IMG/VR virus record: IMGVR_UViG_2778261231_000013
DNA: 9,255 bases
Source of the DNA: a virus
Taxonomy: Duplodnaviria > Heunggongvirae > Uroviricota > Caudoviricetes
Direction: 5' to 3' (one strand)
The notes under the pieces were generated by a model that was given only the letters and a program-made list of their open reading frames with translations, did no database searches and was not told the origin of the DNA. Made by a program: the position numbers and the translations under genes. Shown here piece after piece: positions 1 through 9,255 of the stretch (positions within the stretch are counted from its first letter, which is position 1; each line of letters starts with the position of its first letter).

Positions 1-243
1 TTACAGTGCCAGCGATAGCTGATCTTCGCCGTGGTGACTTCGTGGAAAAGCTTCTTGTGGCACCATCGCGCCTGGCGCTGGCTGGGTCTGGTTTAGTGAA
101 CCGTCTATTTCCGTCATGCTGGTGAAACAGTACCCGCACAACATATTTTGACACTGGTGATAGCTGCGCCGTACAAGCAAACTCAGCTCAACGCTGGTTC
201 TGGTTTTTGCTATTGCACGGCAGCGAGGACAGCGCATTGCCAT
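1..243 (-). CDS. ogr: Ogr/Delta-family zinc-finger late transcription activator
   Basis: 80-codon ORF with stop at 1-3. Translation carries the Cys-X2-Cys ... Cys-X4-Cys pattern (CPRC ... CQNMLC) and the RTS and YHQCQN motifs I recall from P2 Ogr. It lies immediately downstream of D on the same strand, as in P2. GGAGG (minus strand, 251-255) sits 7 nt upstream of the ATG at 243; a second in-frame ATG is at 237. Confidence 0.85.
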   Translation of the reverse strand: MAMRCPRCRAIAKTRTSVELSLLVRRSYHQCQNMLCGYCFTSMTEIDGSLNQTQPAPGAMVPQEAFPRSHHGEDQLSLAL

Positions 244-291
244 ACGCGGGCCTCCTTTCAGGACTGGTTAATATCAACGCAAGTATAACGC

Positions 292-1410
292 TTAAGACGT
301 TGAATCGTCACTCTCCGCTGTCCAGTCGTCGATTTTTACTTCCAGTTCCAGCGACGTGGTAAACCCTCCCCCACCAATATCATGAACACACCGCGTTATC
401 GTCCAGTTCCCACTGTCGATCGTGGACTTAAAGCCGTAGACGCTGGCGGGCTGTTCCGGGTACAAATCTGCGCGGCCACGCGCCAGGGTGATGCTGAACG
501 TCGCTGCCCCGCGCTGCAACTCCCGCCACTTAGCCGCTGCGGCACGCTTTGCCGCCTTTTCCGTCTTGAAGGTTTTACGGATAACAAAAACGTTGCCTTC
601 GGCCCCGGCCAGATAATCCCCTTCTTTTTTGCTTGATGCTGGTTCTTTCTTTTTGGCCTGGCTGGTTCGTCGCCTGCGGGTGGTTTTCTTCACGGTAGTG
701 GATGGTTTCTTGCCAAAGTTGAGATCAAGCCAGTATGCAGTTACGCCCGTGTACGCGTCGCGGTCAGCTACGTTAAACCGATGTTTATCACCGCATGACC
801 GGACTATCTCGATCACCGGCAGCGGCTTGCCGCTCTGCGTCACTCCCTTGCCCGGCGTGATAAACAGAAGCATACCGTTTTTAATGGTTGCCACCGCGCC
901 CAGCATTTCGGCCATGCGCGTTAAGAAGCTGATATCTGATTCACTCGTCTGATCGGCGTGGTCTATCTCAATCTTCGCCAGTTCTTCGCTGACGCCCGCA
1001 CGCAGATCGTAGCGGCTGGCAATGCTGGCGACCACGTCCCCCACGGTAATATCGTGCCAGCTATATTCCCGCTTCACGTTAAAGGTATCGCGGAAATCTG
1101 CGCTTCTGGCACTGATCGTTAGCTGGTCAGGCGGGCCAGAGTGTCCGATCTCGTCAACCGTATACACGCCCTTAAAAACCAATGGATCATTATCCCAGCC
1201 CAGCGCCACCGATATCTTTGCGCCGCGTGATGGTAAGGCTACCTGCCCGTCTGCATCATCCAGAGTCAGATCCAGCGTGTCCGCTTCAAAGCCCCGGTTA
1301 TCTGTCAGGGAAAGGGAGATCAGCCGGTTATCCAGCGCCGTAAGCTCCTTACCTTCAATCTCAATACTGAACGCCGGGCGCGGCGAATATCGGTTTTCTG
1401 TCGTGTCCAT
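292..1410 (-). CDS. gpD: Tail protein D (P2 gpD-like late control gene D / baseplate hub-type protein)
   Basis: 372-aa ORF of the size and general sequence character of P2 gpD. It directly precedes ogr on the same strand, the P2 D-ogr arrangement. AAGGGG Shine-Dalgarno on the minus strand just upstream of the ATG at 1410. Confidence 0.85.
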   Translation of the reverse strand: MDTTENRYSPRPAFSIEIEGKELTALDNRLISLSLTDNRGFEADTLDLTLDDADGQVALPSRGAKISVALGWDNDPLVFKGVYTVDEIGHSGPPDQLTISARSADFRDTFNVKREYSWHDITVGDVVASIASRYDLRAGVSEELAKIEIDHADQTSESDISFLTRMAEMLGAVATIKNGMLLFITPGKGVTQSGKPLPVIEIVRSCGDKHRFNVADRDAYTGVTAYWLDLNFGKKPSTTVKKTTRRRRTSQAKKKEPASSKKEGDYLAGAEGNVFVIRKTFKTEKAAKRAAAAKWRELQRGAATFSITLARGRADLYPEQPASVYGFKSTIDSGNWTITRCVHDIGGGGFTTSLELEVKIDDWTAESDDSTS

Positions 1411-1477
1411 ATCAACCCCTTCATCATGATGGGGTACATCGTCGCCACGCGCGCGCGCATGAACAACGCCCCGTCAT

Positions 1478-1495
1478 TGTTGCAGGTTGCTGACA
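1478..1495. promoter_or_regulatory. Candidate Ogr-responsive late-promoter operator (TGT-N12-ACA dyad) in the divergent D/FI intergenic region
   Basis: The sequence TGTtgcaggttgctgACA at 1478-1495 matches the TGT-N12-ACA dyad described for P2/P4 late promoters (normally centred near -55). Its centre is about 81 bp upstream of the FI ATG; a weak -10-like GATATT lies at 1533-1538. No experimental support is available from sequence alone. Confidence 0.5.
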
Positions 1496-1567
1496 ACCCT
1501 TATCCATCGCATCGGCCCGCCATTGCCGCAATGATATTCGCAGTCATTAAACTGGCGAGGCAAATAC

Positions 1568-2761
1568 ATGGCCACTAACTACCATCACGGTGTTACCGTC
1601 ACGGAAACCACCGACCTTAGCACGATGATCACCGACATTGATTCGGCGGTGATCGGCGTTGTCTGCACCGCTGATGATGCGGACGAAACAGCGTTCCCGC
1701 TGGATACCCCTGTACTGATTACCCGCGTGGCTAACATGCTGGGCAAGGCAGGTAAAACCGGCACCCTGTTTACCACCCTGAAAGCGATTTCAGACCAGAC
1801 CAGCCCGCAAACCATTGTGATCCGCGTTGCTGATGCTGCAAATATCAAACCGCCAGAAGGCGGCACCGCACAGACTCAGGATCAACTGGTTATTGGCGGC
1901 ACCGATGCAAACGGGCGCTTTACCGGCATGTACGCGCTGCTGTCTGCCGAAATGCGCGTAGGTGTGCGCCCGCGTGTACTGGCTGTTCCTGGGCTTGATA
2001 CGGAAGCGGTAGCCGCACAACTCGGCGTCATTGCCGAAAAGCTGCGCGCGTTTGCTTACGTGGCAGCGAACGGCTGCAACACAATCGCCGAAGTGAAGGT
2101 ATACCGCGAGCAATTCTCCCAGCGTGAAATGATGGTTATCTGGCCTAATTTCATCTGCTACGACACCAACGCCGGGGCTAATGCCACCGTGCCCGTGGGT
2201 GCCCATGCTGTTGGGATGCGCGCCAAAATCGACGCAACGCAGGGCTGGCATAAAACCATTTCCAACGTGCCCGTTAATAACGTGCTGGGGATGGATCGGG
2301 ATATCTATTTCACGTTGCAGGGCACCGATACCGACGCCGACGAACTGAACGCAGCAGGTGTTACCACGCTGATCAAGCAGGACGGCTACCGCATCTGGGG
2401 ATCACGTACCTGCGACGCGGAAACGTATATCTTCGAAAGCTATACCCGAACCGCGCAGATTGTTGCGGATACCGTCGCCGAAGCCCATTTCGCCTATGTT
2501 GATAAACCGCTTACCCCGTCGCTGGTAAAGGACATTGTGGACGGCATCAATAAGAAGCTGACCTCATATGTGACGGCTGGCAAGCTGCTGGGCGCCCGCT
2601 GCTGGTATGACCCAGAACCGAATACCTCGGAAACTCTGCGCAATGGTCAACTGACCATTAAGTACAACTACACCCCTGTTCCACCGCTGGAAAATCTCAG
2701 CCTGGTACAGGAGTTCACCGACGAATATTTCGCTACGTTTTCCAGCGCAGTGAATAACTAA
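1568..2761 (+). CDS. gpFI: Contractile tail sheath protein (P2 gpFI-like)
   Basis: 397-aa ORF, the size of P2 FI, with an N-terminal ...YHHGV... segment as I recall for P2-type sheath proteins. GAGG 7 nt upstream of the ATG. Followed 12 nt later by the tail tube gene, as in P2. Confidence 0.9.
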   Translation: MATNYHHGVTVTETTDLSTMITDIDSAVIGVVCTADDADETAFPLDTPVLITRVANMLGKAGKTGTLFTTLKAISDQTSPQTIVIRVADAANIKPPEGGTAQTQDQLVIGGTDANGRFTGMYALLSAEMRVGVRPRVLAVPGLDTEAVAAQLGVIAEKLRAFAYVAANGCNTIAEVKVYREQFSQREMMVIWPNFICYDTNAGANATVPVGAHAVGMRAKIDATQGWHKTISNVPVNNVLGMDRDIYFTLQGTDTDADELNAAGVTTLIKQDGYRIWGSRTCDAETYIFESYTRTAQIVADTVAEAHFAYVDKPLTPSLVKDIVDGINKKLTSYVTAGKLLGARCWYDPEPNTSETLRNGQLTIKYNYTPVPPLENLSLVQEFTDEYFATFSSAVNN

Positions 2762-2773
2762 CCGGGGGCGCTT

Positions 2774-3289
2774 ATGGCACTGCCTAAGAAACTCAAATAT
2801 TTCAATATGTTCTTTGACGGGGATAACTACTTCGGCATGGTGCCGGAAATCACCCCCGCCAAACTCACCAAAAAAACGGAAGACTACCAGGCGGGTGGTA
2901 TGCCGGGTTCGGTTGCGGTGGATCTTGGCTTCGACGCTGGCGCCCTGGATATGGATATCACGCTTGGCGGTCTGGATGCCGGATTGCTGAAAAAATGGGG
3001 CGTTACCACTGCGGACGGGATGCAAACACGTTTTGCTGGCTCCTATCAGGACGACGCAACCGGCGACGCTGTACCGTGCGAAATCCAGACGCGTGGCCGC
3101 TTCACTGAACTGGATCCCGGTTCGGCAAAAGTCGGGGATGACACTTCGCATAAGTACACCCTGAAAAACACCTATTACAAGCTGACCATCAACGGCGAAG
3201 AGATCATCGAAGTTGATGTGCTCAACATGATCTACAAAGTTGCCGGTGTGGATGTGCTGGAAAAACACCGCGCTAACATCGGCCTATAA
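2774..3289 (+). CDS. gpFII: Tail tube protein (P2 gpFII-like)
   Basis: 171-aa ORF starting MALPKKLKYFNMF and ending ...RANIGL, colinear with my recollection of P2 FII (about 172 aa). Lies immediately after the sheath gene. Confidence 0.9.
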   Translation: MALPKKLKYFNMFFDGDNYFGMVPEITPAKLTKKTEDYQAGGMPGSVAVDLGFDAGALDMDITLGGLDAGLLKKWGVTTADGMQTRFAGSYQDDATGDAVPCEIQTRGRFTELDPGSAKVGDDTSHKYTLKNTYYKLTINGEEIIEVDVLNMIYKVAGVDVLEKHRANIGL

Positions 3290-3303
3290 GGAAACCCGGC
3301 ACC

Positions 3304-3639
3304 ATGAGCAAGACCAAAGAAAACACCGTTATTCTTACCGCCCCTATTACGCGCGGTAAGACCAAAATCACCGAAGTGGCGATCACTTCCGTGCTTAAAC
3401 AGGCTGGATCACTGCGCGGCTTAAAAGCCTATGACGTGCTGACTTCCAACTATGACGCGCTGGTTATTCTGCTGCCCCGCGTTACCGCTCCGGCACTAAC
3501 CGCCGATGAGATTGCCCGTATGGATACTTGGGATTTTTGCCAGCTAGCCAACGCGGTGGTTGATTTTTTGCAACCCTCTTCGGATCTGACCGCGACGGAT
3601 ACGGGCAACGAATCATCCGATGCCCCTGCGAACGCATAG
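3304..3639 (+). CDS. gpE: Tail assembly chaperone (P2 gpE-like), zero-frame product
   Basis: 111-aa ORF between the tube and tape-measure genes, the position of P2 E. AAGGAAA upstream of the ATG. Contains the T_TTT_TTG slippery heptamer at 3564-3570. Confidence 0.8.
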   Translation: MSKTKENTVILTAPITRGKTKITEVAITSVLKQAGSLRGLKAYDVLTSNYDALVILLPRVTAPALTADEIARMDTWDFCQLANAVVDFLQPSSDLTATDTGNESSDAPANA

Positions 3640-3764
3640 AAGACCTGATGGCAGATATCGCCGTCATATTCCACTGGCGGCCGGTAGAGATGGACGCCAT
3701 GACGGTACAGGAAATACTGTTATGGCGTGATCAGGCGGCTGCGCGCAGTGGTGGAGATAACTAA
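3304..3764 (+). CDS. gpE+E': Tail assembly chaperone E+E' fusion made by programmed -1 ribosomal frameshift (predicted, about 153 aa)
   Basis: After slippage on T_TTT_TTG (3564-3570) the -1 frame is open for 64 codons (ATLFGSDRDGYGQRIIRCPCERIEDLMADIAVIFHWRPVEMDAMTVQEILLWRDQAAARSGGDN) and ends at TAA 3762-3764, which abuts the T start at 3765. This fills an otherwise unexplained 125-bp gap and mirrors the P2 E/E' arrangement. Confidence 0.7.
3564..3570 (+). other. -1 programmed frameshift slippery heptamer T_TTT_TTG
   Basis: Zero-frame codons GAT-TTT-TTG (D-F-L) give the X_XXY_YYZ pattern with X=T, Y=T, Z=G, the heptamer reported for P2 E/E'. Confidence 0.7.
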
Positions 3765-6692
3765 ATGGCAGACCGCAATTTAAATATCAGGGTGGCATTC
3801 AGCGCCCTGAATAATATGTCCCGCCCTGTCAACGCGGCGCGCCAGAGTGCCGCCGCGTTGGCGTCTCAAATCAACCAGACTAAAACCAGCATTAAAGGGC
3901 TTGAGCGTCAGGCAACCAGCTTTGACCGCCTCACCGCAGCCAATAAAAAAACCACCGAACAACTGGCCCAGGCGAAAGAACAGGCCCGGCAAATGGCGGC
4001 GGCTTATGGCCCGTTACGCCAGCGCAGCGCCGAACAGGTTGCCGCCCTCAATCAGCAACGTGCAGCCATTCGCCAGTTAACCCAGCAGCAGAAAGGCGAG
4101 CAGACGCAGCTTAACCAGTTGCGGGCCAGCTTCTACAGCGAAGGCATTGCGATCAGCAGCGCCAGCCGGGCGACGGAACAGATCAACCAGCGCACCGCGC
4201 AATACAACCGCCAGCTTGCCGAACAGCAGCGACGGCTTGACGCTGTTAACCAGGCGCAGGCCCGTTACAGCCGCGCCAAAGAAACCGGCGAAAAGATGAT
4301 GAGCGGGGGGATGAAAAGCGCCGCAGTAGGGGCGGCAACCCTAGCACCTGTCGCCGCTGCGGTTAAATCCTACAGCAGCCTTGAAGACGCCATGAAAGGC
4401 GTAGCCAAACAGGTAAACGGCTTGCGTGACGACAGCGGCAACCGCACCCCGCAATATGAAGAAATGCAGCGGGCGATCATGGATGCCAGCGAAAAGCTGC
4501 CAATGGCAAACGGTGCTGTTGACTATGCCGCACTGGTCGAAGGCGGCGCACGTATGGGCGTAGCAAACATCGATGATCCGTGGGAAAAACAAAAAGCCGA
4601 TCTGCTGTCTTTCGCCAGCATGGCGGCAAAGGCTTCTGTTGCCTTTGAACTTCCCGCCGACCAGCTTTCTGAAAGTCTCGGTAAGATTGCCGGGCTGTAT
4701 AAAATCCCTACCCAGAATATTGAACAGTTAGGCGACGCCATAAACTACCTGGACGATAACGCGAAGTCGAAAGGCTCCGATATTATCGACGTGCTCCAGC
4801 GCGTTGGCGGACTTGCCAGCCAACTGGATTACAAGCAAGCCGCCGCGCTGGGTTCCACCTTTCTGACGCTCGGCACCCCTGCCGAAGTTGCCGCCAGCGC
4901 CACCAATGCAATGGTGCGCGAACTCTCAATCGCTACGGTTCAGGGCAAAAACTTTATGCAGGGTCTGGACGCCCTCGGCCTCAGCGCCGAAAAAGTTCAG
5001 AAGAGCATGTCAGTGGACGCGATGGGCACAATCATTTCAGTGCTGGAAGCGTCCAAAAAACTGGCCCCGGATCAGCAGGTAGCCAACCTTACCCAGATTT
5101 TCGGCAAAGAGTTCGGCGATGATGCGCAGAAACTTGCGAACAATCTGCCCGAACTACGCCGCCAGATAGAACTGACGCAGGGCGCAGCCGCTAAAGGATC
5201 CATGAATCGGGAATCGGATATCAACAAAGCTTCCCTTTCTGCTCAGTGGCAACTGACCAAAACCGGCGCGGTTAACGCATTCAGTTCAGCAGGGGAAACG
5301 CTCCGCGAACCGCTGATGGATATCATGCTTACTGTCAGTAAGGTGGTTGGCAGCGTCCGCCGCTGGGTTGAGGCAAACCCGGCGTTGGTTGGTTCAATCA
5401 TGAAAGTCACCGCAGCCATAGGCGCGTTGCTGGTTGTCGTGGGCGGTCTGATGCTGTCCATTGGTGCGGTACTCGGCCCAATGGCACTTGTTCGCCTCAG
5501 CTTCACCACGTTGGCCGGGGAAGGAGGAATAGCGCGGCTGACTGGCGGCGTAATGCGCCTGGGTGGTGCGTTCCAGTGGCTTGCTGGCTCGCCTATGCAG
5601 GCATTGTTAAGCGCCGGTCGCATGGTATTCGGCCCGCTTATCACGCTACTGGCTGGCATTTCTGCGCCCGTCTGGGGGCTGATTGCTCTCTTTTCTGCGG
5701 CAGCTGTGGCCGTCATTAAATTCTGGCAACCGATTAAGGCATTTTTCAGCGGGTTCTTTACCGGGCTGATGGCTGGCCTTCAACCTATCACGCAGGCATT
5801 TAACGCCGTATTTGCACCGCTGGCCCCGATTTTTGACAGTATCGGCAACGCGATCAGCGGCGTCTGGGAGTGGTTTACCAAACTGCTGGAACCGATCCAG
5901 TTTTCCAGCGAAGCGCTGGCATCCTGTACCAGTGCAGGGGAAACATTCGGCAAGGTGGTAGGGGGTGCAATCAGCGCGCTGACTCTTCCCATTCAGTCCG
6001 TAGCCAAAGGGCTGGGCTGGATTCTGGAAAAGCTTGGCGCCATTCCCGACGCAGCGAAAGCAGCGCAGCAGGTTGCGCAGCAAATGACGCCGGAAGCGGT
6101 CAACAATCTGGCAGACCGGGTTAACGCCTTTTCCGGTGACGTGCAGGCAGTCGCGAAGGAAAGCAAAAAAGCCGAAGAGAAAAAGAAAACCGATGAGCAG
6201 AAGAAACAGGACAACCTGATTAACTCGCTCAAAGGCCCGGCCAACATCGTGCCGAAGATGAGCAGTAGCTTGGACAAAATCGCCACCAATACCACGGAGA
6301 AGAAAGACGGCCCCGGCGAAATTGTCTTCAAGAATAAGCAGCCCTATATCCCGATCCGTGGCGGATATTCGGAACCTCTTAAGCAGGCACAGCGCCAGCT
6401 ACCATCCCTTACCGATTGGGTGACGCAGCAGGCCGGATCGCTGATCGCTTCCGTTACCCCCTGGCAGGTTGAGAAGCCCGCCGCCCGGGTGCCCGTTTCG
6501 GCGTCGCCGTCTGCGGCCTCCGTCGCTGCGCTGATGCCTGCACCGGGTGGCGATGTATATAACCTTAACTTCGACTTTAGCGGCCAGAAACTGGATGAAG
6601 AAACCATTATCAGGCGCGTGCGCGAAGAACTTGCGTTAGCGAAGCAGCAGGCCGACCGGCGCAAGCGTTCCCAACTGACCGATCACGTCTAA
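3765..6692 (+). CDS. gpT: Tail tape measure protein (P2 gpT-like)
   Basis: 975-aa ORF in the position of P2 T. Q/A-rich coiled-coil-like N-terminal third, central hydrophobic segments (for example ALVGSIMKVTAAIGALLVVVGGLMLSIGAVLGPMALV), and a charged K/E-rich patch, all typical of tape measure proteins. Confidence 0.9.
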   Translation: MADRNLNIRVAFSALNNMSRPVNAARQSAAALASQINQTKTSIKGLERQATSFDRLTAANKKTTEQLAQAKEQARQMAAAYGPLRQRSAEQVAALNQQRAAIRQLTQQQKGEQTQLNQLRASFYSEGIAISSASRATEQINQRTAQYNRQLAEQQRRLDAVNQAQARYSRAKETGEKMMSGGMKSAAVGAATLAPVAAAVKSYSSLEDAMKGVAKQVNGLRDDSGNRTPQYEEMQRAIMDASEKLPMANGAVDYAALVEGGARMGVANIDDPWEKQKADLLSFASMAAKASVAFELPADQLSESLGKIAGLYKIPTQNIEQLGDAINYLDDNAKSKGSDIIDVLQRVGGLASQLDYKQAAALGSTFLTLGTPAEVAASATNAMVRELSIATVQGKNFMQGLDALGLSAEKVQKSMSVDAMGTIISVLEASKKLAPDQQVANLTQIFGKEFGDDAQKLANNLPELRRQIELTQGAAAKGSMNRESDINKASLSAQWQLTKTGAVNAFSSAGETLREPLMDIMLTVSKVVGSVRRWVEANPALVGSIMKVTAAIGALLVVVGGLMLSIGAVLGPMALVRLSFTTLAGEGGIARLTGGVMRLGGAFQWLAGSPMQALLSAGRMVFGPLITLLAGISAPVWGLIALFSAAAVAVIKFWQPIKAFFSGFFTGLMAGLQPITQAFNAVFAPLAPIFDSIGNAISGVWEWFTKLLEPIQFSSEALASCTSAGETFGKVVGGAISALTLPIQSVAKGLGWILEKLGAIPDAAKAAQQVAQQMTPEAVNNLADRVNAFSGDVQAVAKESKKAEEKKKTDEQKKQDNLINSLKGPANIVPKMSSSLDKIATNTTEKKDGPGEIVFKNKQPYIPIRGGYSEPLKQAQRQLPSLTDWVTQQAGSLIASVTPWQVEKPAARVPVSASPSAASVAALMPAPGGDVYNLNFDFSGQKLDEETIIRRVREELALAKQQADRRKRSQLTDHV

Positions 6693-6702
6693 GGGCAATA
6701 TC

Positions 6703-7152
6703 ATGATGATGATTCTGGGGATGTTCCCCTTTTCACTGCAAACCACGCCTTACCAGAGTGCGAATAAAACCAACTCCTGGCGGCACGTCAAAAACGATCG
6801 CGTGGGGAAATCCCCGCGCTATCAGTTCATCGGCGCAGATGAAGAACCGTTCGTACTCAGCGGCACGCTGTACCCCGAAATAAGCGGCGGTGATGTGTCG
6901 CTTGTCATGCTGGAAACTATGGCTTTTTCCGGGCGCCCGTGGCCCCTGATAGAAGGCACGGGCAGGATCTACGGCATGTATGTCATTGAGCAGATCACGC
7001 AAAACCGGACGGAATTTTTTAAGGACGGGAAGGCAAAGAAAATTGATTTTACGCTCAACCTGAAACGGGTAAGCGAGGACATACGGGAAAAGCTGGCTGA
7101 AACAACTACCGACGATCTCTTCTCTCTGGTGAAAACCAACCTTTCGATATAA
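6703..7152 (+). CDS. gpU: Tail protein U (P2 gpU-like)
   Basis: 149-aa ORF starting MMMILGMF, with SWRH, VGK and TGG motifs matching my recollection of P2 gpU (which also starts MMM). Lies directly after T. AAGGG 7 nt upstream of the ATG. Confidence 0.85.
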   Translation: MMMILGMFPFSLQTTPYQSANKTNSWRHVKNDRVGKSPRYQFIGADEEPFVLSGTLYPEISGGDVSLVMLETMAFSGRPWPLIEGTGRIYGMYVIEQITQNRTEFFKDGKAKKIDFTLNLKRVSEDIREKLAETTTDDLFSLVKTNLSI

Positions 7153-7155
7153 GAA

Positions 7156-7175
7156 AAGCGGGCCTTTGCCCGCTT
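7156..7175. terminator. GC-rich hairpin between convergent U and invertase genes (candidate bidirectional intrinsic terminator)
   Basis: AAGCGGGC (7156-7163), loop CTTT, GCCCGCTT (7168-7175) form a perfect 8-bp stem. An A-rich run precedes it on the plus strand, which gives a U-rich tail for minus-strand transcripts; the plus-strand tail (CGTCTTCC) is less U-rich. Confidence 0.5.
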
Positions 7176-7258
7176 CGTCTTCCGGAACACACCGCCATAA
7201 CTGACCGTGCTACAGCACCGTTAAAAATGACTGTACTCGATACGCACGGCCAGCACGG

Positions 7259-7840
7259 TTAGAACCAGCCATGCGTGCCGGAATCCTTATTCCTGGTCGC
7301 AGGGAATTTTTTGTAAAGCGTAGATATCCCAACATCGTAAATTATAGCAACCCTCCGGCGAGATTCTCCTGCCGCTATTAATCTACCCGCCTGCGCCCAT
7401 TGTTCTGGTGTTAGTTTTGGTCGTCTACCTCCGATCCTTCCCTGCGCGCGAGCGGCCACCAGTCCTGCACGCGTACGCTCGACAATCAATTCTCTCTCCA
7501 TCTCTGCCAGTGCCCCCATAACATGAAAAAAGAAACGCCCCATTGGCGTTGATGTATCAATACTGTCAGTCAAGCTGCGGAAGTTCACGGAACGTTGCTT
7601 TAGCTCCTCCACGAGAATTACCAAGTTCCGCATACTCCGCCCAAGACGATCCAGCTTCCAGACAACAAGCGAGTCTCCTGGAGAAAGGCGCTTTAGTAAT
7701 TTTTTAAGCCCTGGCCTTTCCGCTGTTCTCCCGCTCATTTTATCTTCAAAAATTAGCTCACATCCTGACCGCTCAAGCGCATCACGTTGCAAAGCCGTGT
7801 TCTGGTCATTTGTTGATACGCGCACATACCCAATAAACAT
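7259..7840 (-). CDS. Site-specific DNA invertase, serine recombinase of the Din family (Gin/Pin/Cin/Hin-like)
   Basis: 193-aa ORF with N-terminus MFIGYVRVSTNDQ carrying the catalytic serine, then conserved blocks LVVWKLDRLGRSM, FRSLTDSIDTSTPMGRFFFHVMGALAEMERELIVERT and a C-terminal helix-turn-helix (VAIIYDVGISTLYKKF). It is near-colinear with my recollection of Pin (e14) and Gin (Mu). Confidence 0.95.
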   Translation of the reverse strand: MFIGYVRVSTNDQNTALQRDALERSGCELIFEDKMSGRTAERPGLKKLLKRLSPGDSLVVWKLDRLGRSMRNLVILVEELKQRSVNFRSLTDSIDTSTPMGRFFFHVMGALAEMERELIVERTRAGLVAARAQGRIGGRRPKLTPEQWAQAGRLIAAGESRRRVAIIYDVGISTLYKKFPATRNKDSGTHGWF

Positions 7841-7894
7841 AGTTTTTCATTCCGTTAAAACGATAAATCATGCCATTCGCATAAAAATTATGCA

Positions 7895-7920
7895 TTTTCC
7901 AAAACGTTGGTTTGGGGGAA
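7895..7920. other. Candidate 26-bp invertase crossover site (hix/gix/cix-like)
   Basis: TTTTCCAAAACG-TT-GGTTTGGGGGAA: two imperfect inverted 12-bp half-sites around a central TT dinucleotide. It resembles the Din-family consensus half-site TTATC(C/A)AAAACC (about 9-10 of 12 matches per half). It lies 55 bp upstream of the invertase start, where such sites sit next to gin/pin/cin. Confidence 0.6.
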
Positions 7921-8259
7921 GCGGCCAAATTGCCTGCGATTAGTGGCTCTTTATCATCATCTGGCTGGATAAAAATCCCTGTTATAGAGGGGGAGTCTTT
8001 TATTATCCAATGGGGAAGAATCGGACCTTCTGATAGTAAAACTGGTGTTGCAACAGGAAGTTATCCTATTGCTTTTCCAAATTCTGCATTTATGGCATTT
8101 ATTGCTGAAAAAACCGCAGTATCCACAGGCCCAATAGGTATTAATTCCTGGGGAGTGTCCGAACTAACAAAAACAGAATTAAAGGCCATTTGTGCTGCAA
8201 GGACTATATCAACTTCAGCCGCAACTGAAATAGGTGATTTTCTGGTACTGGGATATTGA
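7912..8259 (+). CDS. Start-less tail-fibre C-terminal variable cassette (silent alternative receptor-binding end; no ATG start of its own)
   Basis: The ORF track starts it at a TTG, but the frame is open from 7885 across the crossover site. Its stop TGA (8257-8259) is followed by a tfa gene, the usual fibre-then-assembly order. It has no promoter or constant N-terminal fibre part in this orientation. Markedly AT-rich. Confidence 0.5.
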   Translation: MGEAAKLPAISGSLSSSGWIKIPVIEGESFIIQWGRIGPSDSKTGVATGSYPIAFPNSAFMAFIAEKTAVSTGPIGINSWGVSELTKTELKAICAARTISTSAATEIGDFLVLGY

Positions 8260-8279
8260 ACTTCCATAAGGATTATAAA

Positions 8280-8729
8280 ATGTCGAGCATAATATACTAC
8301 AGCTCTATAAATAATGCATTTTACCCTGAGCATTTGAAACAAGAATATATTAAATCTAATTCTTTTCCAGCAGATGCAAAACCCGTTAAATATTCTGTTT
8401 TCGAAGAATTTGCACTTAAACCAGCACCAGAAGGAAAATACAGATGCGTTGGTGAAGATGGAATGCCATCATGGGCAGATATTCCACCACCAACACATGA
8501 GGAACAGATTGCCGCAGCCGAATTGAAAAAGCAGCAATTGATTAACCAGGTCAACGAATACATGAACAGTAAACAATGGCCCGGTAAAGCGGCTATTGGT
8601 CGTCTGAAAGGTGAGGAACTGGCGCAATATAATCTGTGGCTGGATTACCTGGACGCACTGGAAATGGTCGATACTTCCAGTGCTCCAGATATTGAATGGC
8701 CTACGCCTCCGGCAGTTCAGGCCAGATGA
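8280..8729 (+). CDS. tfa: Tail fibre assembly protein (Tfa family; Mu U / lambda Tfa-like)
   Basis: ATG at 8280 preceded by AGGA (8270-8273); I prefer this to the upstream in-frame TTG at 8256. The C-terminus ...VDTSSAPDIEWPTPP matches the conserved Tfa C-terminal motif (compare TfaE ...VDTSTAPDIEWP, from memory). Confidence 0.8.
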   Translation: MSSIIYYSSINNAFYPEHLKQEYIKSNSFPADAKPVKYSVFEEFALKPAPEGKYRCVGEDGMPSWADIPPPTHEEQIAAAELKKQQLINQVNEYMNSKQWPGKAAIGRLKGEELAQYNLWLDYLDALEMVDTSSAPDIEWPTPPAVQAR

Positions 8730-9255
8730 CATCTGGCGCGGTGCTGGTATCAGTTGCCGTCACCGCGTCAATGTAATCCAGCACAGCGTTAAGGCGGGTT
8801 GTTTCTGCCTGCGTCAGCTTCCGCCCGGCCTGTAATTTCAGTTGAATCAGACTAATGGAAGCCATTGCAGTATCCATCAGCGACTGGCGCTGTGCTTCTG
8901 CTGCGTCTACTGCGGCGCTATGCTGTGCCTCAGTATCGGTCACCCATTTCTCACCATCCCATTTATCGTATGGCGTTAATGGGGCGATAGTGGTTGTATT
9001 TTCAGGGTAATCACCCGGAGCGGTGATTTCTTTTGATTCTCCTGTTTTGGTGCTATAGACCGTTTCACCGCGATGGTCTGGCACATATTCCCATGAGTTA
9101 AAATCTGCAGAACGGCAGATTGCATAACCAGCCTTATGTGTGCCAGGGGCATCTAAACAGGAACATGCCGGAATGCCGACACCAACGGCAAGATATTCAT
9201 TTGAAGTGGAAATATATTCCCGAGTTTCACCATCATAGCTATAGACGGTAATATT
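8701..9255 (-). CDS. tfa: Second tail fibre assembly protein (Tfa family), 5'-truncated by the window edge
   Basis: The minus-strand frame is open from the window edge to the stop at 8701-8703. Translation (...FNSWEYVPDHRGETVY...KWDGEKWVTDTEA...TDTSTAPDVIWPELPEA) is colinear with my recollection of e14 TfaE. The ORF track's 8701..9084 reflects only the first in-window alternative start (GTG); no ATG/GTG/TTG exists upstream in frame, so the real N-terminus lies past 9255. Confidence 0.8.
   Translation of the reverse strand, partial: NITVYSYDGETREYISTSNEYLAVGVGIPACSCLDAPGTHKAGYAICRSADFNSWEYVPDHRGETVYSTKTGESKEITAPGDYPENTTTIAPLTPYDKWDGEKWVTDTEAQHSAAVDAAEAQRQSLMDTAMASISLIQLKLQAGRKLTQAETTRLNAVLDYIDAVTATDTSTAPDVIWPELPEA

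Follow-up and report, generated by a model that had tools for sequence, protein, structure and literature searches.

The DNA analysed here, a stretch of 9255 bp that we refer to as the window, comes from a P2-like E. coli prophage. Salmonella phages SEN4/SEN5 (genus Senquatrovirus) are 94% identical to it over 1-7350, and its first 2 kb are 99.9% identical to the prophage that E. coli NZ_LT883142 carries between fieF and cpxP. Pfam matches, together with the SEN5 and E. coli prophage annotations, delineate a rightward tail operon and a leftward unit that is opened by D (98.9% identical to SEN5 D) and continued by ogr (Table 1). The latter encodes the phage's own cognate C4 zinc-finger activator, in which the PF04606 match is accompanied by a CX2CX22CX4C motif. 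In P2, 186 and Fels-2 the genes FI-FII-E-T-U-D-ogr follow one another on a single strand; relative to P2 the FI-U block of the window is flipped, so that D-ogr and FI-U diverge from a 157-bp spacer.

Table 1. Annotated and predicted features of the window; index counts bases outward from the dyad centre, index 1 being the first base past it.
Feature	Coordinates	Strand	Remarks
ogr, late activator gene	1-243	-	downstream of D; Pfam PF04606, E = 1.5e-13
Sigma-70-like promoter GTGACG-18-TATACT upstream of ogr	311..282	-	spans D stop codon and D-ogr spacer
D, tail/baseplate hub	292-1410	-	first gene of leftward unit; Pfam PF05954
Predicted PD transcription start, about A1430	1429-1431	-	7-8 nt past GACGAT
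Predicted PD -10-like hexamer GACGAT	1443..1438	-	index 44-49, exact mirror of FI side
Alternating tract CACGCGCGCGCGCATG in PD spacer	1446-1461		between -35-like and -10-like elements; includes CGCGCGCGCG at 1448-1457
PD -35-like element TTGTTC	1466..1461	-	17 bp upstream of GACGAT
Ogr-type dyad TGT-N12-ACA, TGTTGCAGGTTGCTGACA	1478-1495		arms reach TTGT/ACAA, 1477-1496; centre 1486.5
Predicted PF -10-like hexamer AATGAT	1530-1535	+	index 44-49; overlaps GATATT 1533-1538
Predicted PF transcription start	1542-1544	+	A1542 = index 56; placed from mapped P2/186 starts at index 55-59
Rightward tail operon FI-FII-E(E')-T-U	1568-7152	+	Pfam; SEN5 and E. coli prophage annotation
FI	1568-2761	+	Pfam
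FII	2774-3289	+	Pfam
E	3304-3639	+	Pfam
T	3765-6692	+	Pfam
U	6703-7152	+	Pfam
Terminator-like hairpin, 9-bp stem	7155-7176	-	between invertase gene and U
Serine DNA invertase	7259-7840	-	Pfam
Tail-fibre and fibre-assembly cassettes	from 7912 on		Pfam

Compared with Fels-2, where the order invertase>FI>...>U>D>ogr occupies one strand, the window carries the FI-U block inverted between the invertase gene and D. The block does not appear to be a presently invertible segment of the adjacent invertase, as no inverted repeats pair its ends and its orientation is fixed across genera; that the invertase took part when the block first flipped is speculation. Beyond that gene (7841-9255), tail-fibre C-terminal and fibre-assembly cassettes lie by the Hin/Gin/Cin-type invertase in an arrangement resembling a host-range inversion switch, and the PGAP annotation gives N-terminally truncated copies in the same region. 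At the other end of the window, the sigma-70-like sequence preceding ogr is likely an independent ogr promoter, and the P2 and 186 records annotate an ogr/B promoter at the position equivalent to 282-311.

The SEN5 record also annotates a 50-residue hypothetical protein, SEN5_27, over the whole spacer between D and FI (NC_028701 20707-20859, corresponding to window 1426-1578 on the plus strand). NCBI PGAP makes no such call in E. coli, and the longest open frame across the dyad switches strand and frame between lineages, although this test is weak for short GC-rich DNA. SEN5_27 is probably an annotation artefact over a promoter region.

One dyad and two mirrored hexamers between D and FI

The TGT-N12-ACA element that a first-pass annotation had placed at 1478-1495 lies exactly there (TGTTGCAGGTTGCTGACA), and its near-symmetric position between the two genes holds as well, the centre being separated by 81.5 bp from the FI ATG at 1568 (P2 FI and 186 J: 82.5 bp) and by 76.5 bp from the minus-strand D ATG at 1410 (P2 P: 78.5 bp; 186 orf12: 77.5 bp). 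The palindrome described for it is confined to the arms (TTGT/ACAA, 1477-1480 and 1493-1496), the inner 10 bp not being symmetric. The element is an exact instance of the TGT-N12-ACA motif of Ogr/B/Delta-dependent late promoters, quoted as a late-promoter consensus in the report on phage Smp131 (PMC3931495), and it is located upstream of late structural genes on both sides, FI-U to the right and D to the left. A pattern scan returned it as the sole exact match in the window, against a chance expectation of 1.39 per window and about 0.024 per 157-bp intergenic stretch. A search of 1411-1567 for a second, degenerate dyad with at most one mismatch found none. A role as RNA hairpin or terminator was also rejected: the arms span just 3-4 bp around a gap of 10-12 nt, and a terminator scan of 1411-1567 came back empty. 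In the literature library that we searched, no paper treats the D/FI locus, for this or any related phage.

To place the corresponding core promoters, positions were counted from the dyad centre and compared with mapped promoters of P2 and 186. The comparison draws on about seven mapped promoters, partly homologous to one another, and used a positional rule with negative controls and not a position weight matrix. In P2, the hexamers are TAGCCT for PP and GAAACT for PO, both at index 44-49 with a mapped start at index 56, and GAAAAT for PF at index 45-50 with a start at index 58; in 186, they are TAGCCT for p12, GAAACT for pV and GACAAT for pJ, all at index 44-49 with starts at index 55-59. All six share an A at position 2 and a T at position 6 (hereafter A2/T6), and the non-promoter sides of the P2 PF and 186 pJ dyads, which served as negative controls, have no such hexamer (CCTGCC and CGGGTT, respectively). 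Applied to the 49-kb host prophage locus (L002), which contains 12 exact dyads, or 24 sides, where 9 dyads are expected by chance, the rule finds an A2/T6 hexamer at 44-49 on all five sides directed toward late genes (FI, D, V, P and O) and on none of the other 19, a split with a probability of 1 in 42,504 by our own arithmetic on these counts. A dyad combined with an A2/T6 hexamer 44-50 bp from its centre offers annotators a positional rule for late promoters in P2-like phages.

On the FI side the rule selects AATGAT, which matches TATAAT at 4/6 positions and has no -35 match upstream. The -10 candidate proposed earlier, GATATT, does lie at 1533-1538, but the conserved frame is 3 bp nearer the dyad; it is the frame of the P2 PO hexamer, P2 PF having its own at 45-50. 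On the D side the same frame holds GACGAT (3/6 of TATAAT), preceded by TTGTTC (3/6 of TTGACA), which leaves a weak core promoter, with a poor -35 and a non-consensus -10, on either side of the dyad. The two hexamers are exactly symmetric, each beginning 43.5 bp from the dyad centre, and the predicted starts at 1430 and 1542 are about 112 bp apart. The leader predicted for D, of about 20 nt, contains a ribosome-binding site, GAAGGGG, ahead of the D ATG. The first-pass annotation had favoured GATGTA near 1436-1441 on the minus strand as the best D-side -10, and had on that account considered promoter function toward D uncertain. The sequence actually lies one base away, at 1440..1435, and GACGAT, 3 bp nearer the dyad, is the hexamer that occupies the conserved frame; the doubt thus came from picking the wrong hexamer, as the TTGTTC-N17-GACGAT layout matches that of the prophage's own PV promoter (TTGTTT-N17-GATACT). 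Compared without gaps, the D half and the PV half of the same prophage are identical at 35 of 60 positions, against a null of 15.3 +/- 3.6.

Conservation of the spacer among relatives

With gpD as query we recovered 102 loci, which represent at least 10 bacterial genera and 3 phage genera; the genera of the genome scan are Salmonella, Citrobacter, Hafnia, Dryocola, Enterobacter, Photorhabdus, Yersinia, Providencia, Xenorhabdus and Morganella. Their D proteins are as little as 62% identical. FI diverges from D-ogr in 98 of the 102 loci, which together provide 76 distinct intergenic sequences. A dyad of TGT-N12-ACA type, in some cases with TCT/AGA arm variants, is present in all 76 and is the single candidate in 75; these, like the 157-bp spacer of the window, thus have one candidate activator site between two divergent late units. 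In each of the 76, both sides also have an A2/T6 hexamer within 44-50 bp of the centre of the dyad: in 69 spacers both are at 44-49, and in the other seven the D-side hexamer is at 45-50. The divergent layout extends to Xuanwuvirus (Citrobacter phage Shae_phiSM) and Novemvirus (Enterobacter phage phiT5282H).

Position-wise conservation was evaluated by ungapped comparison of eight diverged lineages. In seven of them the stretch from dyad to hexamer is free of indels on both sides; Morganella is the exception, with a 1-nt shift on the D side. Besides the dyad arms, the positions invariant in all eight are G23, A45, A48 and T49 on the FI side and T21 on the D side. Those kept in seven of eight are G(-7), A16, T26, A50 and A56 on the FI side, the last being the predicted PF start, and C8, C34, G35, A45, A48 and T49 on the D side, where the TTG of the -35-like element is also kept across lineages. 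Elsewhere the spacer is mostly unconserved, with 3-5 of the eight lineages in agreement.

The dyad itself varies in a partly coordinated manner. Both arms are changed in the Providencia lineages (TCT-N12-AGA); Xuanwuvirus and Novemvirus have TGT...AGA at D/FI and at P/O alike; and in Photorhabdus-type and Morganella-type contigs extended arms are common to the D/FI and P/O dyads. Strict agreement of dyad type between D/FI and P/O in every genome does not hold, since several lineages agree but contig L097 breaks the pattern, with TCT...ACA at D/FI vs TGT...ACA at P/O; the agreement therefore serves here as supporting evidence only. Among the retrieved contigs, none carries both D/FI and P/O for the Providencia TCT...AGA type.

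Divergent sheath and D-ogr genes with a dyad between them are also seen in Xenorhabdus (L015, L017, L021, L023) and Photorhabdus (L009-L011) chromosomes; a 2026 paper identified the loci of xenorhabdicin tailocins by the araC and ogrK genes on their flanks. In the record of Shae_phiSM (L030) the product names are shifted: the D homologue (2294-3403) is mislabelled 'ogr/Delta-like zinc finger family protein' and the sheath gene (3561-4745) 'late control gene D protein'.

A probable pair of late promoters sharing one activator site

These data support a model in which a single activator site in the D/FI spacer serves a divergent pair of late promoters, PD toward the left and PF toward the right, a reading to which we assign a probability of about 0.85 on comparative sequence evidence. 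Ogr would bind the dyad and recruit RNA polymerase to the weak core promoter on either side. P2 Ogr works by contact with the C-terminal domain of the RNA polymerase alpha subunit. Rightward, the AATGAT core would direct initiation near 1542 and transcription of FI-FII-E-T-U; leftward, TTGTTC-N17-GACGAT (1466..1438) would direct initiation near 1430 and transcription of D, probably reading on into ogr and creating a positive feedback. We infer Ogr binding, the start sites and Ogr dependence from the agreement of the locus with the P2/186 frame and from its conservation (98/102 loci, 76/76 spacers), and on the same grounds the earlier proposal that a single symmetric Ogr site acts on both D and FI finds support. 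Such an arrangement would keep D, and perhaps ogr by read-through, under late control in the many P2-like prophages and tailocin-like loci with an inverted sheath-to-U block. It also suggests how operon inversion could be survivable, as a symmetric activator site would, after the flip, already face the orphaned gene.

The alternatives differ in what they assign to the dyad and in where D transcription originates. Least probable, in our estimate, is that the dyad is a chance match or the site of a protein other than Ogr. The motif is short, with 9 matches expected per 49 kb and more than one in the window as a whole; the expectation for the 157-bp spacer is, however, low, and conservation in all 76 distinct spacers, in some with paired arm changes, excludes chance. 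Like dyads occur at P/O and upstream of V in the host prophage, each with the hexamer frame, and the distance between dyad and FI fits those of P2 FI and 186 J. Hardly more probable is a spacer with no D promoter, in which D would be transcribed mainly by read-through from a distant minus-strand origin, either the invertase gene or an antisense promoter within the tail operon. Upstream of D on its own strand lie 5.6 kb that are entirely antisense to the tail operon, over which such transcripts would have to run, and the hairpin at 7176..7155, just downstream of the invertase gene, would halt minus-strand read-through from that gene toward D. For both reasons D needs a promoter in the spacer, and read-through would in addition leave the conserved D-side elements unexplained.

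A third explanation, unlikely but the strongest of the competitors, retains the dyad as activator site of the FI promoter only and has D transcribed from a sigma-70 promoter within the spacer that does not need Ogr; the two candidates are TTGTTC-N17-GACGAT by itself and, on the minus strand at 1558..1531, TCGCCA-16-TATCAT. The latter is a 9/12 sigma-70-like match in a consensus scan, but no better than chance, 3 such matches having been found vs 1.5 expected. In favour of this explanation, the D side has a -35-like TTG that is absent from the P2 late promoters examined, and a weak Ogr-independent promoter would also fit the conservation of the D-side elements. What it fails to account for is spacing: the distance between hexamer and dyad is fixed within 1 nt in all 76 spacers, for which an activator-independent promoter has no reason, and at prophage PV the TTGTTT-N17-GATACT layout likewise follows a dyad. 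Moreover, D is a structural tail gene and presumably requires late, high-level expression. We therefore favour the two-promoter reading with Ogr acting in both directions.

The PD spacer contains an alternating CG tract, CACGCGCGCGCGCATG, within which C34 and G35 are the positions kept among lineages. The 49-kb host locus contains GCGCGCGCG at no more than three positions, each within a late-promoter spacer: the D side, PV and the P side (further tract coordinates in L002 being 25014-25024 and 31305-31313). The FI and O sides of the host locus have no CG tract. Xuanwuvirus has a similar tract, CGCGCGCG, on its P side, Novemvirus has one on the D side as well as the P side, and Morganella-type contigs have it too; CGCGCGCGATGTGGGAAAG is common to the D and P halves of the Morganella type.

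Taken together, these observations invite a joint reading that we put forward only tentatively and consider rather less likely to be right than wrong, namely that in this lineage the late regulon consists of bidirectional Ogr units that are all asymmetric in the same fixed way, with a conserved alternating CG spacer in one half (P, D and also V) and, in the other, an AATGAT-type -10 without the CG tract (O, FI). If so, the FI-U flip would have put the symmetric PF site beside D and generated the D/FI unit, D would have gained a P/V-type CG half by duplication or convergence, and the tract would be a functional promoter element setting direction-specific strength or timing; it could work as a spacer prone to form Z-DNA and sensitive to supercoiling, or as the target of a second factor. 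In Xuanwuvirus and Novemvirus the S-like gene overlaps V, at 16015-16629/15437-16018 in the former (L030) and at 28012-28650/28647-29228 in the latter (L031), which leaves no room for a separate PV promoter; the two bidirectional dyads, P/O and D/FI, may control almost the whole set of late genes there.

Known and predicted shared-site late promoters in P2, 186 and the host prophage

The closest precedent for the predicted D/FI pair is PP/PO of P2 (NC_001895), recorded as one feature at 3057-3087, 'activator binding site; pO, pP promoters'. The mapped starts of P (3016, minus strand) and O (3127, plus strand) are 111 bp apart, each 55.5 bp from the dyad centre, which we place at 3071.5. The two loci have in common one dyad between back-to-back late operons, A2/T6 hexamers at 44-49 on both sides and an Ogr-family activator. 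They differ in their genes, as PP/PO serves head and packaging functions (P-Q; O-N-M-L...) and the window pair tail genes, in the site itself, which is imperfect in P2 (TGT...CCA) and perfect in the window, and in that the P2 starts are mapped and those of the window predicted. The FI operon of P2 ends with D, which lacks its own promoter; in the window D leads the leftward unit.

Phage 186 provides a second precedent, a single B-protein site (NC_001317, 3798-3817) annotated with 'activation of pV and p12 promoters', where TAGCCT and GAAACT stand in the frame used by the window. It serves head genes under the activator B rather than Ogr, and the tail operon of 186, J...D, runs one way as in P2. 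P2 PF and 186 pJ are the homologous one-way promoters of the operon of window PF, with their -10 hexamers (GAAAAT/GACAAT) at 44-50, but the far side of their dyads faces no late gene, while the far side in the window holds the second predicted promoter. In phage Smp131, PP' and PO' have been placed on the same 18 bp (PMC3931495).

Within the host prophage and SEN4/SEN5, the P/O pair (L002 31269-31286) likewise has one perfect TGT-N12-ACA, between different genes, and is split in the same manner as D/FI: its P side, CG-rich with TAGCCT, resembles the D side, and its O side, with AATGAT, resembles the FI side. The pairs differ in their leaders, which are predicted to be 20-26 nt for D and FI and to be missing for P, the predicted start falling on the A of the P start codon. 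This position of TAGCCT, at 44-49, and of the predicted start on the A of the terminase-large-subunit ATG (L002 31333) recurs in SEN5 and in IMG/VR relatives. The ATG has no preceding ribosome-binding site, and the annotated start of P looks right because homology to P2 gpP begins at residue 5; the terminase mRNA may be leaderless. In the P2 record, PV transcription likewise starts at the first nucleotide of V.

Overall, the records of P2 and 186 already annotate one activator site for two divergent late promoters, at PP/PO and p12/pV, and the idea is correct but not new. The probable D/FI pair leaves the understanding of Ogr-type activation unchanged and is a second such shared-site pair at a new position, a known design with no new mechanism.
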